From positions 1 to 5,744 of IMG/VR virus record IMGVR_UViG_3300045988_003171: 5,744 nucleotides of DNA. One strand, written 5' to 3'. Source of the stretch: a virus. Position numbers and translations under genes: made by a program. This document shows positions 1 through 5,744 of the stretch, piece after piece. Every line of letters begins with the position of its first letter. Position 1 is the stretch's first letter. The notes beneath the pieces are model-generated. The model saw only the letters and a list, made by a program, of their open reading frames with translations, made no database searches and had not been told where the DNA came from.

Positions 1-22
1 AACTGGGCGAGTTTGACACCGA
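1..22. repeat. Terminal redundancy: 22 nt identical to 5723-5744, the circular-assembly overlap
   Basis: aactgggcgagtttgacaccga occurs exactly at both window ends. The reading frame is continuous across the implied junction. Confidence 0.95.
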
Positions 23-104
23 GACCGGCTACATGAGCGAAGCGATGCCCGAGCACATCGCGCGGCTCATCGACCTGAAGGAGACGGCCAATGTTAAATC
101 CTGA
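1..104 (+). CDS. 3' part of the junction-spanning small protein (84 aa in total, VP5-like conserved Microviridae non-structural protein). The 5' part is at 5572-5744.
   Basis: Frame 3 is open from the window start to TGA at 102-104 (..LGEFDTETGYMSEAMPEHIARLIDLKETANVKS*). It joins in frame to the ORF starting at ATG 5572 once the 22-nt overlap is removed. Confidence 0.75.
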   Translation, partial: LGEFDTETGYMSEAMPEHIARLIDLKETANVKS

Positions 105-516
105 TGTACTGGTAAGGTACTACGGACTGCCGACCGAAAGAGTGACAAACAATCCGGGCAGCAAAACCGCGCCAACGTGGAAAGCGGTCAAACGACCGAA
201 CGGCACAACCGACTACATCGAGCAGCCGGACGAGAACACATACGAAAAAATCCAGCGCGCCGGCGAGGGATACGACCTTGCAAGCGCAATCGCACGACTG
301 GAAGCGGGAGACACCAGCATCAAGGCAAAGAGCGTGGTATACACCGAAGGAACTGACCTTGAAAATCTGCCGAAGGATATCATGACGATGCACGAAAAGG
401 CCGAGGCAGCAGCCGAAACAATGGAACAACTGAAACAGGTACAACAGACCGAACAGCCGAAACCGAAAGAGGAAGAAAAAAAGGAGGAGGTGAAGGAAAA
501 CGAACAGAAACAGTGA
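91..516 (+). CDS. Hypothetical 141-aa protein with a Glu/Lys-rich C-terminal tail. By position (immediately upstream of the capsid gene) it is a candidate internal scaffolding protein (VP3-like).
   Basis: ATG 91 is preceded by AAGGAG (78-83) at 7-nt spacing. The start overlaps the upstream stop (ATGTTAAATCCTGA), suggesting translational coupling. I could not recognise a family-specific motif, so the function is positional inference only. Confidence 0.7.
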   Translation: MLNPDVLVRYYGLPTERVTNNPGSKTAPTWKAVKRPNGTTDYIEQPDENTYEKIQRAGEGYDLASAIARLEAGDTSIKAKSVVYTEGTDLENLPKDIMTMHEKAEAAAETMEQLKQVQQTEQPKPKEEEKKEEVKENEQKQ

Positions 517-541
517 AAACCATTTCGCACAAGTGCCGCGA

Positions 542-2206
542 ATGGAACGACCACGAAGCAAATTTGACCGGAGTCACCAGCTGTTGACGACCATCAACGA
601 AGGTGACTTAGTGCCAATCTACTGTGATGAAGTGCTTCCAGGCGATACGGCAAAAGTACGCCTGAACGGGCTTATTCGTATGAGCACACCCATCTATCCT
701 ATCATGGATAACTGCTACATGGACACCTACTTCTTCTTTGTTCCGTGCCGTCTGCTATGGGAGCACTGGGAGAACATGTTCGGCGAAAACGATACAGACT
801 ACTGGGCAGAAAAGACCGAATACAGCACGCCAACTTGCACAATCGGCGGCACATCCGGTCTGAACAACGGCACCATCGGAGACTACTTTGGACTGCCGAC
901 CGGAGTAAAAAACGCAATCAAAGTGAACGCGCTGCCAGCACGCGCCTATGCAATGATCTATAACGAGTGGTTCCGGGATGAGAACCTTGAAGCACCGTTA
1001 ATGCTGGGATACAAAAAAAGCGATGAAGGAGGCAAAGAAACAGCACCTGGAAACGCAGATAAAGAATACTATGCAAACAAACCCAGCCTAACAACAAACA
1101 CAAACGAAGCAACCTTATACGCGCGATATCCAGCCAAAGCGGGAAAATTCCACGACTACTTCACCAGCTGTTTGCCGAGTCCGTTGAAATCTGACCCTGT
1201 GGAAATCAGCCTAACGGGTAATGCGCCAGTAGGGATGTACAGAAACACAGAACTCACCGAATACGGAACAGCAGGTGGAAAACAGGCAATCTACTTCAAC
1301 CAAAAAGCCACAGATTCTTACATACCAGGAATCACGAACAACAAATCAGGAGAAAAAATTTCGCAGGTAGCAGGAAGCTCGAGCAATATAAAACATGTAG
1401 GAGATGTAGCATACCTAGGCGCCAACCTGAGCGCAGTAAGCGGCGTAAGCATTGCAGATTTGCGCATGGCAATCGCCTTGCAGCACATCTTTGAAGCAGA
1501 TGCACGCAACGGCACGCGATACCGTGAATTCCTTTCTGGTACATGGGGCGTAACAAGTCCGGACAGCCGTCTACAGATTCCTGAATACATCGGCGGACAG
1601 CGCATCCCAATCAACGTAAATCAGGTTGTGCAGACGAGCCAGACGGACCCGACAACCGGGCAAGCACTGGGCAATACGGCGGCATACAGCCTGACCACGT
1701 GCAGTAAAGAGATGGTTGACTATGCAGCGACCGAATACGGCTATATCATCGGTCTGGCAGTAGTACGAGTAGAGCACAGCTACCAGCAGGGGCTTGCGAC
1801 CAAGTGGACACGCGGCGGGCGATTCACATACTACGACCCGCGTTTGGCAGCACTGGGCGAACAGCCGGTGTACAACCGTGAAATCTATGCACAGGGCACA
1901 GCCGAAGATGACGAAATCTTTGGCTACCAAGAGGCCTGGGCGGACTACCGCTACAAGCCTTCTTACGTAACCGGTGAAATGAGATCTAACTACCAGACAA
2001 GCCTTGACGCATGGCACTATGCAGACGATTATAACACGCTTCCGTATCTCTCGGCAGAATGGATTCAGGAAGAAACAAAGAACATTGACCGAACAATTGC
2101 AATAACGAGTGCAAAAAGTCATCAGTTCTTGTGTGACTTCTACTTCACGGAAGACTGGTATCGCGAGATGCCTATCTACAGCATCCCGGGCATCGAAAGA
2201 ATTTAA
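542..2206 (+). CDS. VP1: Major capsid protein, Microviridae F/VP1 family
   Basis: The N-terminal signature RSKFDRSHQLLTTINEGDLVPIYCDEVLPGDT (nt 554-649) and the ~550-aa length are typical of Microviridae major capsid proteins. ATG 542 was chosen; an in-frame GTG at 533 is the maximal ORF start. No Shine-Dalgarno is visible. Confidence 0.95.
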   Translation: MERPRSKFDRSHQLLTTINEGDLVPIYCDEVLPGDTAKVRLNGLIRMSTPIYPIMDNCYMDTYFFFVPCRLLWEHWENMFGENDTDYWAEKTEYSTPTCTIGGTSGLNNGTIGDYFGLPTGVKNAIKVNALPARAYAMIYNEWFRDENLEAPLMLGYKKSDEGGKETAPGNADKEYYANKPSLTTNTNEATLYARYPAKAGKFHDYFTSCLPSPLKSDPVEISLTGNAPVGMYRNTELTEYGTAGGKQAIYFNQKATDSYIPGITNNKSGEKISQVAGSSSNIKHVGDVAYLGANLSAVSGVSIADLRMAIALQHIFEADARNGTRYREFLSGTWGVTSPDSRLQIPEYIGGQRIPINVNQVVQTSQTDPTTGQALGNTAAYSLTTCSKEMVDYAATEYGYIIGLAVVRVEHSYQQGLATKWTRGGRFTYYDPRLAALGEQPVYNREIYAQGTAEDDEIFGYQEAWADYRYKPSYVTGEMRSNYQTSLDAWHYADDYNTLPYLSAEWIQEETKNIDRTIAITSAKSHQFLCDFYFTEDWYREMPIYSIPGIERI

Positions 2207-2208
2207 GG

Positions 2209-2215
2209 AAGGAGG
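2209..2215 (+). promoter_or_regulatory. Strong Shine-Dalgarno (AAGGAGG) with no start codon at normal spacing; candidate split RBS for VP2
   Basis: AAGGAGG lies directly after the VP1 stop (TAA 2204-2206). The next 29 nt contain no ATG, GTG or TTG in range, and the nearest start is ATG 2245 beyond the hairpin at 2217-2236. Confidence 0.5.
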
Positions 2216-2216
2216 A

Positions 2217-2242
2217 AGCCCCGCAAAAGCGGGGCTATTTTT
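2217..2242 (+). terminator. Rho-independent terminator (or attenuating hairpin) between VP1 and VP2
   Basis: An 8-bp GC-rich stem, agccccgc (2217-2224) paired with gcggggct (2229-2236), has an AAAA loop and is followed by aTTTTT (2237-2242). Confidence 0.8.
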
Positions 2243-2244
2243 GA

Positions 2245-3102
2245 ATGGAGACATTATTAAGCTTTATGCCATACCTCATGCAAGGACTGAGCATGCTAAC
2301 AGGCATCATAACGAGCAGCAACCAGAGCGGAGCCAAGAACAGCCAAGGGGCAGGCAGCGAGACCACAACAGGCAGCGAGACCACAACAGGCAGCGTAACA
2401 GGACCACAACAGATAGGTTCAACACAAATCAGCACGCCAACAGGCGTAACAACGTTCGGGAATCAGAGCAGTGTAAACACCGCAAACGCTCTGCAAATGA
2501 TAAGCGGACTACTAAGCAACCTTGCGAATGCTGGAAGCCAAGCAAGCGCCAAGAAGTACAACAGCGCAGAGGCAGCAGCAGAACGAGCGTTTCAAAAGGA
2601 AATGCGCGGGACAGCTTATCAGGATACCGTAAAGGACATGATCGCAGCGGGCATCAATCCTATCCTAGCAGCGACCAACGGAGCAACAAGCGCACCATCG
2701 GGAGCATCTGCAAGCATTGGAAGCCAACGTTATAACCAGCAGAGCGCACAGGCTGCAAGCGTATCCGCAATGTACGAATATGGCAACAACACGGCAGAAC
2801 TGGCAGACAAATACTTACAGCTGGCAAAACAGGCGACCAGCGCAAAACAGTTTAAGAATGCGAAAAGCTGGGAACAGGCAGCGAGCGAGCTGGCAACCTC
2901 AAGCGCAAAACAGGCGCAACAGTACACCTATGCAGCTAGCAAATTAGGTGCAGGACTTGCGGGAGCTGGTAAAGCAGCCAAAAAAGCAGCAGAAAAGGCT
3001 GGCAAAGCAGCCAAAGACACAGCAGGAAACTTCAAAAAGTACAACCAGAGAGTGCCAATCATGCCAAACATGGACGCATTCAACGCATACACAGGAGACT
3101 AA
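2245..3102 (+). CDS. VP2: Minor capsid / DNA pilot protein (VP2/H-like)
   Basis: It sits immediately after VP1 and has a hydrophobic N-terminus (METLLSFMPYLMQGLSMLTGIIT). The conserved pilot-protein core AFQKEMRGTAYQDTVKDMIAAGINPILAA (nt 2587-2670) resembles the gokushovirus VP2 consensus (..TAYQR.v.D...AG.NP.LA). The tail is rich in Ala, Lys and Gln. Confidence 0.85.
   Translation: METLLSFMPYLMQGLSMLTGIITSSNQSGAKNSQGAGSETTTGSETTTGSVTGPQQIGSTQISTPTGVTTFGNQSSVNTANALQMISGLLSNLANAGSQASAKKYNSAEAAAERAFQKEMRGTAYQDTVKDMIAAGINPILAATNGATSAPSGASASIGSQRYNQQSAQAASVSAMYEYGNNTAELADKYLQLAKQATSAKQFKNAKSWEQAASELATSSAKQAQQYTYAASKLGAGLAGAGKAAKKAAEKAGKAAKDTAGNFKKYNQRVPIMPNMDAFNAYTGD
2353..2395 (+). repeat. 18-nt in-frame tandem repeat (2 full copies plus a 7-nt partial third) inside VP2
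   Basis: ggcagcgagaccacaaca is present at 2353-2370 and 2371-2388, followed by ggcagcg at 2389-2395. It encodes GSETTT-GSETTT-GS. Confidence 0.9.
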
Positions 3103-3108
3103 AAAAGG

Positions 3109-3137
3109 AAGGGGGATGGCAAAACATCCCCCTTTTT
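3109..3137 (+). terminator. Rho-independent terminator after VP2
   Basis: A 10-bp stem, aagggggatg (3109-3118) paired with catccccctt (3125-3134), has a 6-nt loop and a T run at 3133-3137. It lies just after TAA 3100-3102. Confidence 0.85.
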
Positions 3138-3165
3138 CAGTAACAAAAATCCAAAAAATAAAGAA

Positions 3166-3346
3166 TGTGGAAAACTTGAGTTTTCAACACTTTCAACAGG
3201 TTTTCAACAACAAGTTGCACAAAGAAATTAGTCAAAATGACGAACATTCAACAATTCAACAAGTCTTCAACAAAGTTTTCAACAGGCAAAAAGACAATAA
3301 ATAAACGTAGTAACGTTAAAAAAACGAGTTTTCAACACTTTCAACA
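3166..3346 (+). repeat. Iteron array: nine same-orientation TTCAACA heptamers in three clusters, plus one inverted DnaA-box-like element
   Basis: TTCAACA starts at 3183, 3192, 3203, 3247, 3255, 3266, 3278, 3331 and 3340. The 10-mer GTTTTCAACA occurs 4 times (3180, 3200, 3275, 3328). An exact 21-nt repeat GAGTTTTCAACACTTTCAACA is at 3178-3198 and 3326-3346. TGTGGAAAA at 3166-3174 is the reverse complement of TTTTCCACA. Confidence 0.9.
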
Positions 3347-3347
3347 C

Positions 3348-3365
3348 TACTACTACTACGACTAC
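3348..3365 (+). repeat. Trinucleotide microsatellite (TAC)4-GAC-TAC in non-coding DNA
   Basis: The sequence tactactactacgactac directly follows the last iteron. Confidence 0.8.
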
Positions 3366-3398
3366 AACAAGTTAATATACAAAGAAAGCGAGGTGTCA

Positions 3399-3433
3399 AC
3401 CGGCACAAGATAGACAAGGAAGCTTGTGCCGGT
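3399..3433 (+). promoter_or_regulatory. Perfect 11-bp stem-loop abutting or overlapping the rep start; candidate origin hairpin or translational operator
   Basis: accggcacaag (3399-3409) pairs with cttgtgccggt (3423-3433) around a 13-nt loop, atagacaaggaag, which contains the SD-like AAGGAAG (3416-3422). The alternative GTG start at 3426 lies in the 3' arm. Confidence 0.6.
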
Positions 3434-3440
3434 AACAAAA

Positions 3441-4430
3441 ATGCCATGTACAAAACCATTAGTATTTCAGATGGATACGAAAAAACCGCAACTGTGGGGA
3501 TCTCTGGAAAACCTATCAAAGCAAGGGCTTCAAACGGACATCATGGACGGAGTCAAAAAAGGAAAATTCGCATTGTTACCATGCGGTAAGTGTGAATACT
3601 GCCGCAAACAGATGGCTGACCAATGGGCAACCAGAATAGAACTAGAAGCCAAAGAATGGGACGATGTAATTTTCCTAACACTAACATATGACGATGAACA
3701 TATCCCATACGGCGAGATCCTCAAAGGCTACAGAAGCATTCAAAGCCAGACAGTAAGCAAACGAGACGTGCAGCTATTTATAAAGCGGCTACGAAAAGCA
3801 TACAAAAAGCCAATAAAATACTTTCTAGCAGCTGAATATGGTGACAGAACAAAAAGACCACACTATCACGCAATAATATTTGGACTGAAACCACCGGATG
3901 CACAATGGTATAAAAACCAAAAAGGCAACAGCTATTTCAAAAGCGAGTGGCTACAAAAAATCTGGGGCAAGGGCATGATAGACTTTTCACCAGCACAGCC
4001 GGGGAGCTTTGCATACGTGGCACAATACGTCAACAAAAAAGCCATAGGTGCAGAGCAAGCGGCAAAATACTGGATGGAAGGCAGAGAGCCAGAGTTCCGA
4101 ATCATGTCAAAAGGCATCGGCGAAAACTATCTAAACGAACACAAAGATGAAATCTTGAAAACGGATAGCATCATATGCGCAGGAGGACGCAAGAAAAGGC
4201 CTCCACGCTATTTTGATAAGATTCTAGATAAGGATACCAGCCAAGACACAGAAAGCTATTTTAGGGCACATTCTGACGAGCTGAGAGAGGTAAGAGCCAG
4301 ACGCAGACGCAGTGCAGTACAAAGTTTGGTCAATCTCGAACAAAGCACGAGCGTAGATTATGAAACCTATCTAAACATTCAGAAAGAAAAGGACAAACTA
4401 AAGCAAAAGTGGCGTGAACCAAAAGCATGA
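3441..4430 (+). CDS. VP4: Rolling-circle replication initiation protein (HUH endonuclease, Microviridae VP4/A-like)
   Basis: It has an N-terminus MPCTKPL typical of VP4 and a Cys cluster PCGKCEYCR. Motif 1 is FLTLTY (3672-3689), motif 2 (HUH) is PHYHAIIFG (HYH at 3861-3869), and motif 3 is the double-Tyr YVAQYVNKK (4014-4040). The alternative start GTG 3426 has AAGGAAG 3-5 nt upstream. Confidence 0.93.
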   Translation: MPCTKPLVFQMDTKKPQLWGSLENLSKQGLQTDIMDGVKKGKFALLPCGKCEYCRKQMADQWATRIELEAKEWDDVIFLTLTYDDEHIPYGEILKGYRSIQSQTVSKRDVQLFIKRLRKAYKKPIKYFLAAEYGDRTKRPHYHAIIFGLKPPDAQWYKNQKGNSYFKSEWLQKIWGKGMIDFSPAQPGSFAYVAQYVNKKAIGAEQAAKYWMEGREPEFRIMSKGIGENYLNEHKDEILKTDSIICAGGRKKRPPRYFDKILDKDTSQDTESYFRAHSDELREVRARRRRSAVQSLVNLEQSTSVDYETYLNIQKEKDKLKQKWREPKA

Positions 4431-4487
4431 CGCGCACAGCGCTAAAAAGGAATGGATTTAGCCGAATTCCGCTGCGCTCCATACGGC

Positions 4488-4506
4488 AAGGCGCTAAAGC
4501 GCTTTT
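4488..4506 (+). terminator. Weak candidate terminator or hairpin downstream of rep
   Basis: gcgc (4491-4494) pairs with gcgc (4499-4502) around a taaa loop, extendable by G-U and A-U pairs, and is followed by TTTT (4503-4506). The stem is short, so confidence is low. Confidence 0.3.
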
Positions 4507-4592
4507 CAAACCAGAGGAGCAAAACCGGGTTACAAAAGAAGGTTACAATTTTATTACAAAACAGCAAAATCATAGAAAAACCTATTGACATG

Positions 4593-4601
4593 TGATATAA
4601 T
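4593..4601 (+). promoter_or_regulatory. Extended -10 promoter (TGaTATAAT) upstream of the peptidase gene
   Basis: The sequence matches TGnTATAAT perfectly (TG 4593-4594, TATAAT 4596-4601), about 32 nt upstream of ATG 4633. The nearby TTGACA (4585-4590) is only 5 nt away, so it cannot act as the -35 element. Confidence 0.6.
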
Positions 4602-4632
4602 AGAATCAGAAAAAGAAAGGGAGGTTGACAAA

Positions 4633-5025
4633 ATGATTGAAAGTTATATACTGAACACAGACGGAAATGCACAAATTACAAAACACTTCAAAGTAAAAGA
4701 ATTTGCATGTAAAGACGGTTCACAAATCGTATTCATCGACAGATATTTAGTATCCATTCTGGATATCCTCAGAAACCAAATCGGAAAGCCGATAATCATT
4801 ACCAGCGGATACAGAACGCCGGAGTGGAACAAAAAATGCAACGGAGCAAAATATAGCTACCACATGCGCGGTATGGCAGCAGATATCCGGGTCAATGGCA
4901 TGAGCGCAAAAGAACTCGCCAACAAACTGAATGAAGTCATCCCGGATGGATGCGGCATTATCGTATACAACGGCTGGGTGCATTTTGATGTGCGAAGCGG
5001 GAAAAAATACAGAAAGGGGGTGTAA
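4633..5025 (+). CDS. Zinc D,D- or L,D-peptidase of the LAS/M15 family (Peptidase_M15-like cell-wall hydrolase); probable lysis enzyme
   Basis: Zn-ligand pattern: SYHMRGMAAD (H at 4861-4863, D at 4882-4884, spacing H-x6-D as in VanX/VanY-type enzymes) and a distal WVHFD (H at 4981-4983), plus TSGYR. ATG 4633 is preceded by AAGGGAGG (4617-4624) at 8-nt spacing. The track start at 4585 is unlikely. Confidence 0.88.
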   Translation: MIESYILNTDGNAQITKHFKVKEFACKDGSQIVFIDRYLVSILDILRNQIGKPIIITSGYRTPEWNKKCNGAKYSYHMRGMAADIRVNGMSAKELANKLNEVIPDGCGIIVYNGWVHFDVRSGKKYRKGV

Positions 5026-5090
5026 CAGTGGAACGTATCAGAATCAAGCGGTAACCAAATGAAACCATAACCTGGAAAGAAGGATAAGCA

Positions 5091-5306
5091 ATGAAAACAT
5101 GGAACATAAGAGACCAGCCCGAAGAATCACTAAAACGCCTCCTTGAAAAAAAACAAAAAGAAATCAAGGCTGGATATAAAATGCTACGAAAGCTAAGCAA
5201 CATAAAAGATGCAGAAATTATGCTGGAAGAAATCTGGCAAACAAAAGCATTTGCAAACGACATAGAAATGGAACTAATCAGAAGGGGGTATAACGATGGC
5301 ACATAG
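5091..5306 (+). CDS. Hypothetical 71-aa charged, predicted helical protein
   Basis: ATG 5091 is preceded by AGAAGGA (5078-5084) at 6-nt spacing. It fills the gap between neighbouring genes and overlaps the next gene by 11 nt. No motif was recognised. Confidence 0.55.
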   Translation: MKTWNIRDQPEESLKRLLEKKQKEIKAGYKMLRKLSNIKDAEIMLEEIWQTKAFANDIEMELIRRGYNDGT

Positions 5307-5412
5307 AAGCGGAGCGGGTCGAGGCGACCAGAAACATTTTACCCAGACTGCAAAGCGGGTAAAAAACATCAACGTTCGACCGAAGGTATCACGAGGCGGG
5401 ATTAGATTATAA
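5296..5412 (+). CDS. 38-aa Arg/Lys-rich small protein, J / ORF8(VP8)-like DNA-binding (packaging) protein
   Basis: It is below the ORF-track length cut-off. Hand translation gives MAHRSGAGRGDQKHFTQTAKRVKNINVRPKVSRGGIRL*. GAAGGGGG (5281-5288) lies 7 nt upstream of the ATG. The basic composition and C-terminal RGGIRL resemble the small basic proteins of gokushoviruses and phiX174 J (also about 38 aa). Confidence 0.65.
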   Translation: MAHRSGAGRGDQKHFTQTAKRVKNINVRPKVSRGGIRL

Positions 5413-5442
5413 ACCATACAAACAAAGAAAGGAGGTGAATTA

Positions 5443-5559
5443 ATGGCACTGATTAAGGTCAAGGACGTCAAGGAAGCAATCGAGCTGATGATGAGCATCC
5501 TTGAAAAGCTCGATGAAATCTACCACGCACTGAAGGACGCGGGCAAAAACGAAGAGTAA
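5443..5559 (+). CDS. Hypothetical 38-aa acidic helical protein
   Basis: It is below the ORF-track cut-off. Translation gives MALIKVKDVKEAIELMMSILEKLDEIYHALKDAGKNEE*. A near-perfect SD, AGGAGGTGA (5430-5438), places GGAGG 7 nt from ATG 5443. Confidence 0.6.
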   Translation: MALIKVKDVKEAIELMMSILEKLDEIYHALKDAGKNEE

Positions 5560-5571
5560 AGGAGAAAAAAC

Positions 5572-5744
5572 ATGAAACTGAAATTCTATTCATTCCACGA
5601 TTCACTGACCAACGGCTACTCACAGCCGTTCTTGCAGAACAACAGGGCACAGGCAGTGCGAACGGCACGCTGGAAAGCAAACGAAAGCAAGCCGAGTGAA
5701 ATCGAAGATATTTCGCTCGTAGAACTGGGCGAGTTTGACACCGA
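5572..5744 (+). CDS. 5' part of the junction-spanning 84-aa VP5-like small protein, truncated by the window end and continuing at 23-104
   Basis: ATG 5572 is preceded by AAAGGAG (5558-5564) at 7-nt spacing. The N-terminus MKLKFYSFHDSLTNGYSQPFLQNNRAQAVRTARW...ISLVELGEFDTETG fits the pattern M.(K).F.v.D......(Q)PF......A.R.F....(F.L)..(G.FD...G) that I recall for small conserved Microviridae proteins. Confidence 0.7.
   Translation, partial: MKLKFYSFHDSLTNGYSQPFLQNNRAQAVRTARWKANESKPSEIEDISLVELGEFDT
5723..5744. repeat. Terminal redundancy, second copy of 1-22
   Basis: It is an exact 22/22 match to the window start. Confidence 0.95.

Follow-up and report, generated by a model that had tools for sequence, protein, structure and literature searches.

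We analysed a stretch of 5,744 nucleotides (the window, positions 1 to 5,744 of IMG/VR record IMGVR_UViG_3300045988_003171), which is the complete circular genome of a gokushovirus-like microvirus with every gene on the + strand. Between its VP2 and rep genes lies a 221-bp module in which clusters of TTCAACA-containing repeats are followed by a run of DnaA-trios and an A+T-rich end. This array probably reproduces in miniature, and in a host-matched form, the half of a bacterial chromosome origin that unwinds, and the last two repeats (boxes 8 and 9), the trios and the A+T-rich end would form a basal unwinding system (BUS). The best reading of the module is that of a host-DnaA-dependent duplex-opening element acting on the double-stranded replicative form, in a family, the Microviridae, known as textbook Rep-driven rolling-circle phages.

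In bacterial origins, the BUS consists of tandem DnaA boxes, DnaA-trios and A+T-rich DNA, as described for Bacillus subtilis incC, Staphylococcus aureus, Synechococcus elongatus and Enterococcus faecalis (PMC6669920, PMC8287927). The consensus trio, 3'-GAT-5', is a single-strand motif that receives a DnaA filament guided from two adjacent DnaA boxes (PMC6669920, PMC8287927). Under the published search rules, one box may deviate from TTATCCACA by no more than 2 mismatches and a second, with no more than 4, must follow in tandem and in like orientation after a gap of at most 3 bp; the spacer may reach 16 bp, and at least 3 NAN trios are required (PMC8287927). The parts of the module in the window are as follows.

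3166..3386, + strand: whole module of 221 bp, an oriC-like cassette of DnaA-box clusters, DnaA-trios and A+T-rich end
3160..3165 (left) and 3381-3386 (right): 6-bp AAAGAA direct repeats flanking the cassette in the window sequence
3166..3174, - strand: inverted DnaA box TGTGGAAAA, reverse complement of TTTTCCACA
3181..3189, + strand: DnaA box 1, TTTTCAACA, column conservation at least 90%
3190..3198, + strand: DnaA box 2, CTTTCAACA
3201..3209, + strand: DnaA box 3, TTTTCAACA (TTTTCCACA in many relatives)
3245..3253, + strand: DnaA box 4, CATTCAACA
3253..3261, + strand: DnaA box 5, AATTCAACA, offset by 8 bp from box 4
3264..3272, + strand: DnaA box 6, TCTTCAACA
3276..3284, + strand: DnaA box 7, TTTTCAACA (TATCAACA in some relatives)
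3329..3337, + strand: DnaA box 8, TTTTCAACA, upstream member of the trio-adjacent tandem pair, fitting the BUS rules (PMC8287927)
3338..3346, + strand: DnaA box 9, CTTTCAACA, trio-proximal
3347..3364, - strand: DnaA-trio run, top strand CTA CTA CTA CTA CGA CTA, bottom strand 3'-GAT GAT GAT GAT GCT GAT-5'
3365..3373, + strand: CAACAAGTT, phage-specific extension of the trio run, at least 90% conserved
3371..3386: A+T-rich end GTTAATATACAAAGAA, putative duplex-unwinding stretch, including the right AAAGAA

Box 8 (3329-3337) has 2 mismatches to TTATCCACA and none to the box of the Oscillospirales origins described below, and box 9 (3338-3346) follows it immediately in the same orientation. Counted from the better box, the first trio lies 9 bp away, within the 0-16 bp allowed, and four consecutive perfect consensus trios with a central A (3'-GAT-5' on the bottom strand, 3347-3358; at least three are asked for) directly abut box 9. 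The top strand after box 9 reads CTA CTA CTA CTA CGA CTA CAA CAA GTTAATATAC; the region 3347-3386 is 70% A+T, with a stretch that is short in the window, and relatives carry TTATATAATAA-type runs at this end. The module as a whole has a G+C content of 31%, versus 47% for the genome.

Written as TTTTCAACACTTTCAACA/CTACTACTACTACGAC, the window shows its parts in the order and orientation of the validated scaffolds of B. subtilis (ACTTATCCACAAATCCACAGGCCC/TACTATTACTTCTACTA in the supplementary oligonucleotide table of PMC8287927; top-strand core TTATCCACAAATCCACAGGCCC/TACTATTAC), S. aureus (ACTTATCCACCAATCCACAGCACC/TACTACTATTACTA; PMC8287927) and S. elongatus (CCTTTTCCACATTTTCCACAGCCCC/TACTACTACTGATCTA; PMC8287927; top-strand core TTTTCCACATTTTCCACAGCCCC/TACTACTAC). 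The orientation of the trios, verified against the same supplementary table, is that of these three scaffolds, and the E. faecalis scaffold, GACTTTTCCACAGAATCAACATGCCC/TATTAC..., contains a TCAACA box (PMC8287927). Scaffold forms of the window's unwinding core are TTTTCAACACTTTCAACA/CTACTACTACTA... and TTTTCAACACTTTCAACA/CTACTACTACTACGACTA. Among related phages, L044, L082, L109 and L112 hold a 23-mer, TTTTCCACAGCCCCTACTACTAC, that also occurs unchanged in the S. elongatus BUS. The number of consecutive trios in phage modules is 3-6, and the trio-proximal box is separated from them by 0, 3 or 4 nt; this box is TTCAAC in 89/144 genomes and TTCCAC in 55/144, where, as in Bacillus, a G/C spacer of 4 nt usually comes next. 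The module thus resembles a chromosomal BUS in element order, orientation and spacing, in a tandem pair offset by 8-9 bp, in a G/C spacer of 0-4 nt, in perfect 3'-GAT-5' trios and in an A+T-rich flank, and the 8-bp offset of boxes 4 and 5 is that of B. subtilis boxes #6 and #7. It differs in residing on a 5.7-kb single-stranded DNA (ssDNA) rolling-circle phage, between VP2 and rep in the window rather than beside dnaA/dnaN, and in being a portable 221-bp cassette, found in either orientation, with the phage-specific CAACAAGTT and a putative activity.

A preliminary description of this DNA had reported nine TTCAACA heptamers of one orientation in three clusters with 8-12 nt spacing and a single further copy elsewhere, and both a recount and shuffled sequences bear this out. 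The window holds 10 copies, all on the + strand, nine within 3183-3346 and one at 2418, where shuffles of the whole window give a mean of 0.85 and a maximum of 4, with 0/200 shuffles reaching 10. The clusters begin at 3183/3192/3203, 3247/3255/3266/3278 and 3331/3340, with respective spacings of 9 and 11, of 8, 11 and 12, and of 9 nt. As also described, four copies extend to GTTTTCAACA, the exact 21-mer GAGTTTTCAACACTTTCAACA occurs twice (3178-3198 and 3326-3346, 148 nt apart) and the complementary strand of TGTGGAAAA (3166-3174) reads TTTTCCACA. The 9-mer TTTTCAACA, allowing at most 1 mismatch, has 10 matches versus 1.8 expected, 8 of them within 3166-3346. The resemblance to DnaA boxes and the recruitment of host DnaA put forward in that description are strongly supported but were understated: the adjoining DnaA-trio run had been overlooked, and its presence points to a complete oriC-type unwinding module.

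Relatives were collected by two IMG/VR pattern scans (one for the trio end, one for the middle box cluster) and by retrieval with the Rep protein, leading to at least 144 genomes of microvirus size that carry the module. For the 147 unique modules obtained via the middle cluster only, with no use of the trio region, conservation is at least 90% in the boxes, the CTACTACTAC run and CTACAACAAGTT, versus 30-70% in the inter-cluster spacers. The box cores of this set comprise 1083 TTCAACA and 100 TTCCACA, with 26 TAT-prefixed TATCCACA and 28 TATCAACA. The heptamer is exchanged at homologous positions for textbook DnaA boxes (TTTTCCACA, TTATCCACA); the position of box 6 is a perfect consensus TTATCCACA in L013, L028, L034, L036, L078, L096, L097 and L118. 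Box direction is uniform, all 473 boxes in 52 unique modules pointing the same way, and the inverted box at the left edge is seen only in the clade of the window and, otherwise arranged, in the L022 clade. A tandem duplication of the spacer and trio-proximal box pair (two TTTTCAACTTTTCCACAGTC units) in L102 indicates that the number of boxes can vary. Complete genomes retrieved by Rep similarity alone all keep one copy of the module, a retention that speaks for an important role.

A scan for canonical tandem boxes with trios retrieved a second, distant microvirus lineage (L391, L393, L425 and L431; VP1 36% identical) with 4-5 TTATCCACA boxes and TTTCCACATTTCCACAatgcCTACTACTACTAC downstream of rep; in L391 the canonical cluster, TTTCCACATTTCCACAatgcCTACTACTACTACTAC and A+T-rich DNA occupy 4100-4300, and the other three share this arrangement. 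Such modules hence extend beyond a single clade, and lineages differ in box type as would be expected if it tracks the host. A search of the PLSDB plasmid records gave no match to the module.

Within the main group, the module is found in three configurations. In configuration A (65 genomes, Rep 80-100% identical to that of the window), it lies between VP2 and rep on the gene strand; in B (4 genomes, Rep 37-38%), downstream of rep on the gene strand; and in C (75/144 genomes, Rep 34-97%), it also follows rep but runs opposite to the genes. Rep identity thus ranges over 34-100% while the boxes are unchanged. The placement just upstream of rep, stressed in the preliminary description, holds for the window but is incidental, since L339, with a Rep 97% identical, has no module there. 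The conserved arrays expected in related microviruses do exist, in at least 144 genomes, but not at one locus: they lie before or after rep and point either way.

L339 also served to set the module boundaries. At the site of the cassette in the window it has a single junction, ...aaaaaaaagaaagcgagg..., and its module is inverted and inserted between the rep stop codon and a conserved non-coding element (4431-4520 in the window). A discrete cassette flanked by AAAGAA, together with the empty site and inverted copy of L339, implies that the cassette would be exchanged by recombination between co-infecting phages. Megablast returned close GenBank relatives and a pig-faeces microvirus, MG945447, that matches at this level of identity only in the array. 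The M15 peptidase of MG945447 is 82% identical to that of the window while VP1 and Rep are ~40% identical, and host-specific parts appear to travel together among these phages. Many relatives (e.g. L011, L017, L094, and L004 at 2990-3040) have arrays of G+C-rich palindromic repeats (CGCGCGTGCGCGCGTGCGCGC...) that flank the module or sit between module and rep; these repeats are absent from the window.

The view that the repeat acts at the DNA level and not as coding sequence was also borne out. The two open reading frames (ORFs) that overlap the array, 2948-3304 and 3237-3413, are not conserved (the latter stops after 10 codons in MG945447) and retrieve nothing from Pfam, and in none of 147 relatives does an open frame span the module, which rules out a coding function. 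A structured RNA or ssDNA is ruled out by Rfam, which returns only sub-threshold noise for the module, and by a single-strand DNA fold no better than that of shuffles (z = -0.49). The array was also considered as a sigma-70-type promoter: a scan found none in 3135-3440, and the rep of L339 has no module upstream. An unstructured single strand, no conserved frame and independence of position and orientation together argue for a duplex-DNA element that would be read by a host protein.

The same motifs are found in host origins. One genome per bacterial species was scanned with the pattern TTCAACN{1,3}TTCMACN{1,7}CTACTACTAC, giving at least 120 matches versus ~3 estimated by chance; those listed are nearly all on chromosomal contigs, mostly of Ruminococcus, Oscillospiraceae, Acutalibacteraceae, Ruthenibacterium and other Clostridia metagenome-assembled genomes. 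At least 64 matches have, on their own strand, a DnaA gene whose end lies 76-560 bp upstream, and in L138 and L127 the order dnaA, box array plus BUS, dnaN was confirmed with Pfam; the dnaA-dnaN spacer of L138 carries ~25 TTTCAACA boxes and gTTTTCAACAgTTTCAACAcccccTACTACTACTACTAttttataaata. With the boxes used for selection excluded, the matches listed contain 569 TTCAACA, 135 TTCCACA and 30 TATCCACA.

The box variant follows the recognition helix of DnaA. Among the host loci (L125-L244, e.g. L138 3567-4958), the 54 with a helix of the type ...GGRDHSTIVY... have a mean of 8.0 extra TTCAACA cores, versus 0.06 for the 16 with the canonical ...DH(T/S)TVxH...; in DHSTIVY a Tyr replaces the canonical His of DHTTVLHA. 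This suggests that Oscillospirales use a lineage-specific DnaA-box variant, a covariation of which we found no description in the literature searched. On the strength of this covariation and of the abundance of TTCAACA in host origins, TTTTCAACA is taken as the native DnaA box of Oscillospiraceae/Ruminococcus-type gut Clostridia, and the phage array would mimic their origin. Like the module, the dnaA-dnaN origins of this group (L138, L127, L159) have TTTTCAACA boxes, head-to-tail clusters and a near-identical core (gagTTTTCAACActTTCAACA(c/cccc)CTACTACTACTA, 39 nt at 95% identity to L159). Unlike it, they span 300-700 bp, hold as many as ~25 boxes facing either way, and lead straight into A+T-rich DNA with no CAACAAGTT extension; similarity is confined to motif stretches of 31-39 nt, with no long homology outside them.

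The predicted host of the phage is therefore a member of the Oscillospiraceae/Ruminococcaceae, and an independent link points the same way. The best VP1 match among plasmid and chromid records is a prophage of Pusillibacter faecalis MM59 (NZ_AP023421.1, L437 3758-8784), an Oscillospiraceae isolate from the human gut; this prophage, with VP1 43% and Rep 41% identical to those of the window, is integrated next to xerC. It contains no TTCAACA array and no CTA-trio run, a single observation that is compatible with a module serving an episomal lifestyle. A near-complete relative (L199, CAVKUS010000079.1, 5739 bp; 93% identity over the module) was deposited in a 'Bacteroides sp. CAG:545' bin, which is probably a mis-binning and misleading for host assignment.

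The main rival explanation holds that the boxes bind host DnaA with no use as an origin: titration would block host re-initiation or derepress DnaA-controlled genes, or box occupancy would tune neighbouring phage transcription. The datA locus and DnaA-box clusters of B. subtilis titrate DnaA, the phage is a high-copy replicon with nine to ten boxes per genome, and the module is always intergenic, beside a transcription unit. We nevertheless regard a sponge or sensor of this kind as unlikely. Boxes alone suffice for titration, yet here the box cluster stands alongside conserved trios and an A+T-rich flank, in a box-spacer-trio-A+T geometry that is at least 90% conserved in the validated unwinding orientation, and rep is expressed in L339 with no module upstream. 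A host regulator other than DnaA has very little probability in our view, whether Spo0A, as in phage phi29, or an OmpR-type response regulator on direct repeats. The 0A box of Spo0A is TGTCGAA (reverse complement TTCGACA), one mismatch from TTCAACA; spore formers are among the likely hosts and direct repeats at 8-12 bp suit response regulators. Yet TTCGACA is absent (0) among ~1,240 box cores of the 147 modules, which rules out Spo0A boxes, all variants shift toward the DnaA consensus (TTCCACA, TTATCCACA), and the same boxes occupy the dnaA-dnaN BUS position in hosts, where they covary with the DnaA recognition helix.

The two functions proposed in the preliminary description fare no better. 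According to one, a hairpin with a duplex DnaA box (3166-3189) on the viral strand recruits DnaA and a primosome for complementary-strand synthesis, as at the A site of the ABC primosome. In the window the inverted box is predicted to pair with box 1 on ssDNA into a small hairpin (TGTGGAAAACT/AGTTTTCAACA), and the L022/L044 clade has an analogous inverted box. Such priming is nonetheless improbable: most module variants lack the inverted box and the hairpin is restricted to some lineages, the z of -0.49 leaves no stable conserved viral-strand fold, trios are meaningful only beside duplex boxes, and about half of the genomes have the module in reverse with respect to the viral strand, an orientation independence that argues for action on duplex DNA. 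According to the other, the repeats are iterons of Rep (VP4) forming the plus-strand rolling-circle origin, as in circular Rep-encoding single-stranded DNA (CRESS) viruses and iteron plasmids. Direct repeats at roughly helical spacing, near rep in the window and followed by the conserved CTACAACAAGTTA, would fit; we consider it extremely improbable all the same. Identical boxes accompany Reps only 34-43% identical, with no covariation over the whole range of Rep identity, and box type tracks the DnaA helix type in host loci, the boxes being the ones that host chromosomal origins contain. Nor is the module fixed in place or direction with respect to rep and the nicked strand (65 genomes in A, 4 in B, 75 of 144 in the inverted C), as illustrated by the moved and inverted module of L339. 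Since microvirus virions package the coding-sense strand and the module occurs in both orientations, a plus-strand nick site or strand-specific signal inside it is unlikely; a Rep nick site in CTACAACAAGTTA, loosely phiX174-ori-like, was rejected as the principal reading on the same ground of inversion in half of the genomes.

Comparison with other replication elements leads to a similar view. Mobile replicons such as RK2 oriV, P1 oriR, pSC101 and F borrow host DnaA via boxes near an A+T-rich region (PMC10797057). In plasmid origins, however, these boxes are only accessory to a Rep that binds its own iterons, and a 2024 review reports that no DnaA interaction with a single-stranded plasmid duplex-unwinding element has been shown (PMC10797057). 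In contrast to plasmid and phage-plasmid origins, the module has no separate Rep iterons and holds a full box-plus-trio set. The A sites of R6K and pBR322 likewise recruit DnaA to a small replicon, and the window has one potential duplex-box hairpin, but they act on ssDNA and are strand-specific, whereas the module is unstructured as a single strand and found in either orientation. The 30-bp phiX174 origin inside gene A and the iteron plus stem-loop origins of CRESS viruses are also replication elements of small circular ssDNA genomes, the latter with direct repeats; they are specific to their Rep, contain the nick site and are situated on the viral strand, while the array is independent of Rep in sequence, position and strand. 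Full-text searches for papers in which Microviridae or other ssDNA phages are connected with DnaA boxes or trios gave nothing relevant; a prior description elsewhere is possible.

We thus favour a host-DnaA-dependent duplex-opening element, with different strength for its different parts: host DnaA very likely recognizes the module, and use of the module for unwinding or as an origin is likely, with less assurance. Motif identity, arrangement and orientation, conservation, agreement with host origins, lack of coding and independence of position and orientation are all observed; from these we infer that DnaA would bind, open the duplex and start replication at the module. On the replicative form, DnaA-ATP of the host would fill the head-to-tail boxes, whose 8-12 bp spacing is like that of cooperative DnaA arrays. 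Starting at boxes 8 and 9, a DnaA filament would grow along the trios of the bottom strand and open the A+T-rich end beside them, which would offer a host-initiator-dependent entry for helicase and primosome loading. The replicative form would thereby be replicated or maintained by a theta-type or DnaA-assisted route beside Rep-driven rolling circle.

Several points weigh against this reading. DnaA binding and firing of the module are deduced from sequence alone, and the host is itself inferred. There is no obvious reason why a phage replicating by rolling circle should require DnaA to open its duplex, and the microviruses known so far do without such a step. The central-A trios form a short run of four before a GCT, the A+T-rich stretch of the window is limited to ~15-20 bp, and the CAACAAGTT extension is conserved yet has no counterpart in host origins. 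The host-origin set was chosen by a pattern already containing TTCAAC, and counts from the large phage and host scans are lower bounds with biased taxon proportions. Recent capture from a host origin was considered and is not demonstrable, the matches to host loci being at motif level (31-39 nt). A bolder proposal, which we hold to be possible though doubtful, is that the replicative form is a DnaA-fired, oriC-like theta replicon tied to the host initiation cycle, with a plasmid-like carrier state instead of integration and the cassette swapped as a host-matching module; the missing cassette of the Pusillibacter prophage, the only integrated relative examined, is consistent with a carrier state as the alternative to integration.

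The genome around the module is organized as follows; a 22-nt terminal redundancy (1-22 = 5723-5744) shows the circle opened inside a small ORF starting at 5572.

91-516, + strand: scaffold-like protein
533-2206, + strand: major capsid protein VP1 (Pfam Phage_F, E = 3e-148)
2217-2242: terminator
2245-3102, + strand: VP2
3109-3134: terminator hairpin
3135-3440: non-coding stretch
3441-4430, + strand: Rep/VP4 (Pfam REP_ORF2-G2P)
4431-4632: second non-coding stretch, carrying a SigA-type promoter
4633-5025, + strand: M15 peptidase

The array therefore does not lie in the only large non-coding region, as had been claimed, 4431-4632 (~200 nt) being likewise non-coding. This second stretch begins with a conserved non-coding element (4431-4520, on to 4632; GCGCACAGCGCTAAAAAGGAATGGATTTAGCCGAATTCCGC...GGCGCTAAAGCGC) that has 87-89% DNA identity with the otherwise distant microviruses MG945162, MG945334 and MG945447 and directly adjoins the DnaA module in configurations B and C. 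A promoter, TAGAAA-17-TGaTATAAT, lies 3' of it at 4573-4601, and the single-strand fold of 4425-4640 is unremarkable (z = +0.29 versus shuffles). Just 5' of the rep start, a hairpin at 3399-3433 (CCGGCACAAG / loop ATAGACAAGGAAG / CTTGTGCCGG) shows compensatory double changes at three stem positions among relatives and tracks the window-type rep (65/65 configuration-A genomes and L339), not the module. This hairpin may serve as a Rep nick site or in translational control of rep, and is loosely like the phiX174 ori (CAAC...G/ATA...TAGAC, the slash marking the break). VP2 holds an exact 18-nt tandem repeat, CAGGCAGCGAGACCACAA, in 2.5 copies (2351-2395), encoding a repeated GSETTT.

As far as the literature searched goes, no host-initiator-dependent oriC-type unwinding module has been described for Microviridae. 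If functional, it would give phages that are very abundant in human and animal guts a second, DnaA-gated mode of replication or maintenance. It would expose TTTTCAACA as a lineage-specific box variant that goes with a His-to-Tyr substitution in domain IV of DnaA, and the match between box variant and host DnaA helix would provide a sequence-based host predictor for uncultured microviruses. The 221-bp cassette would also be a candidate replicon for genetic tools in gut Clostridia that are hard to manipulate.

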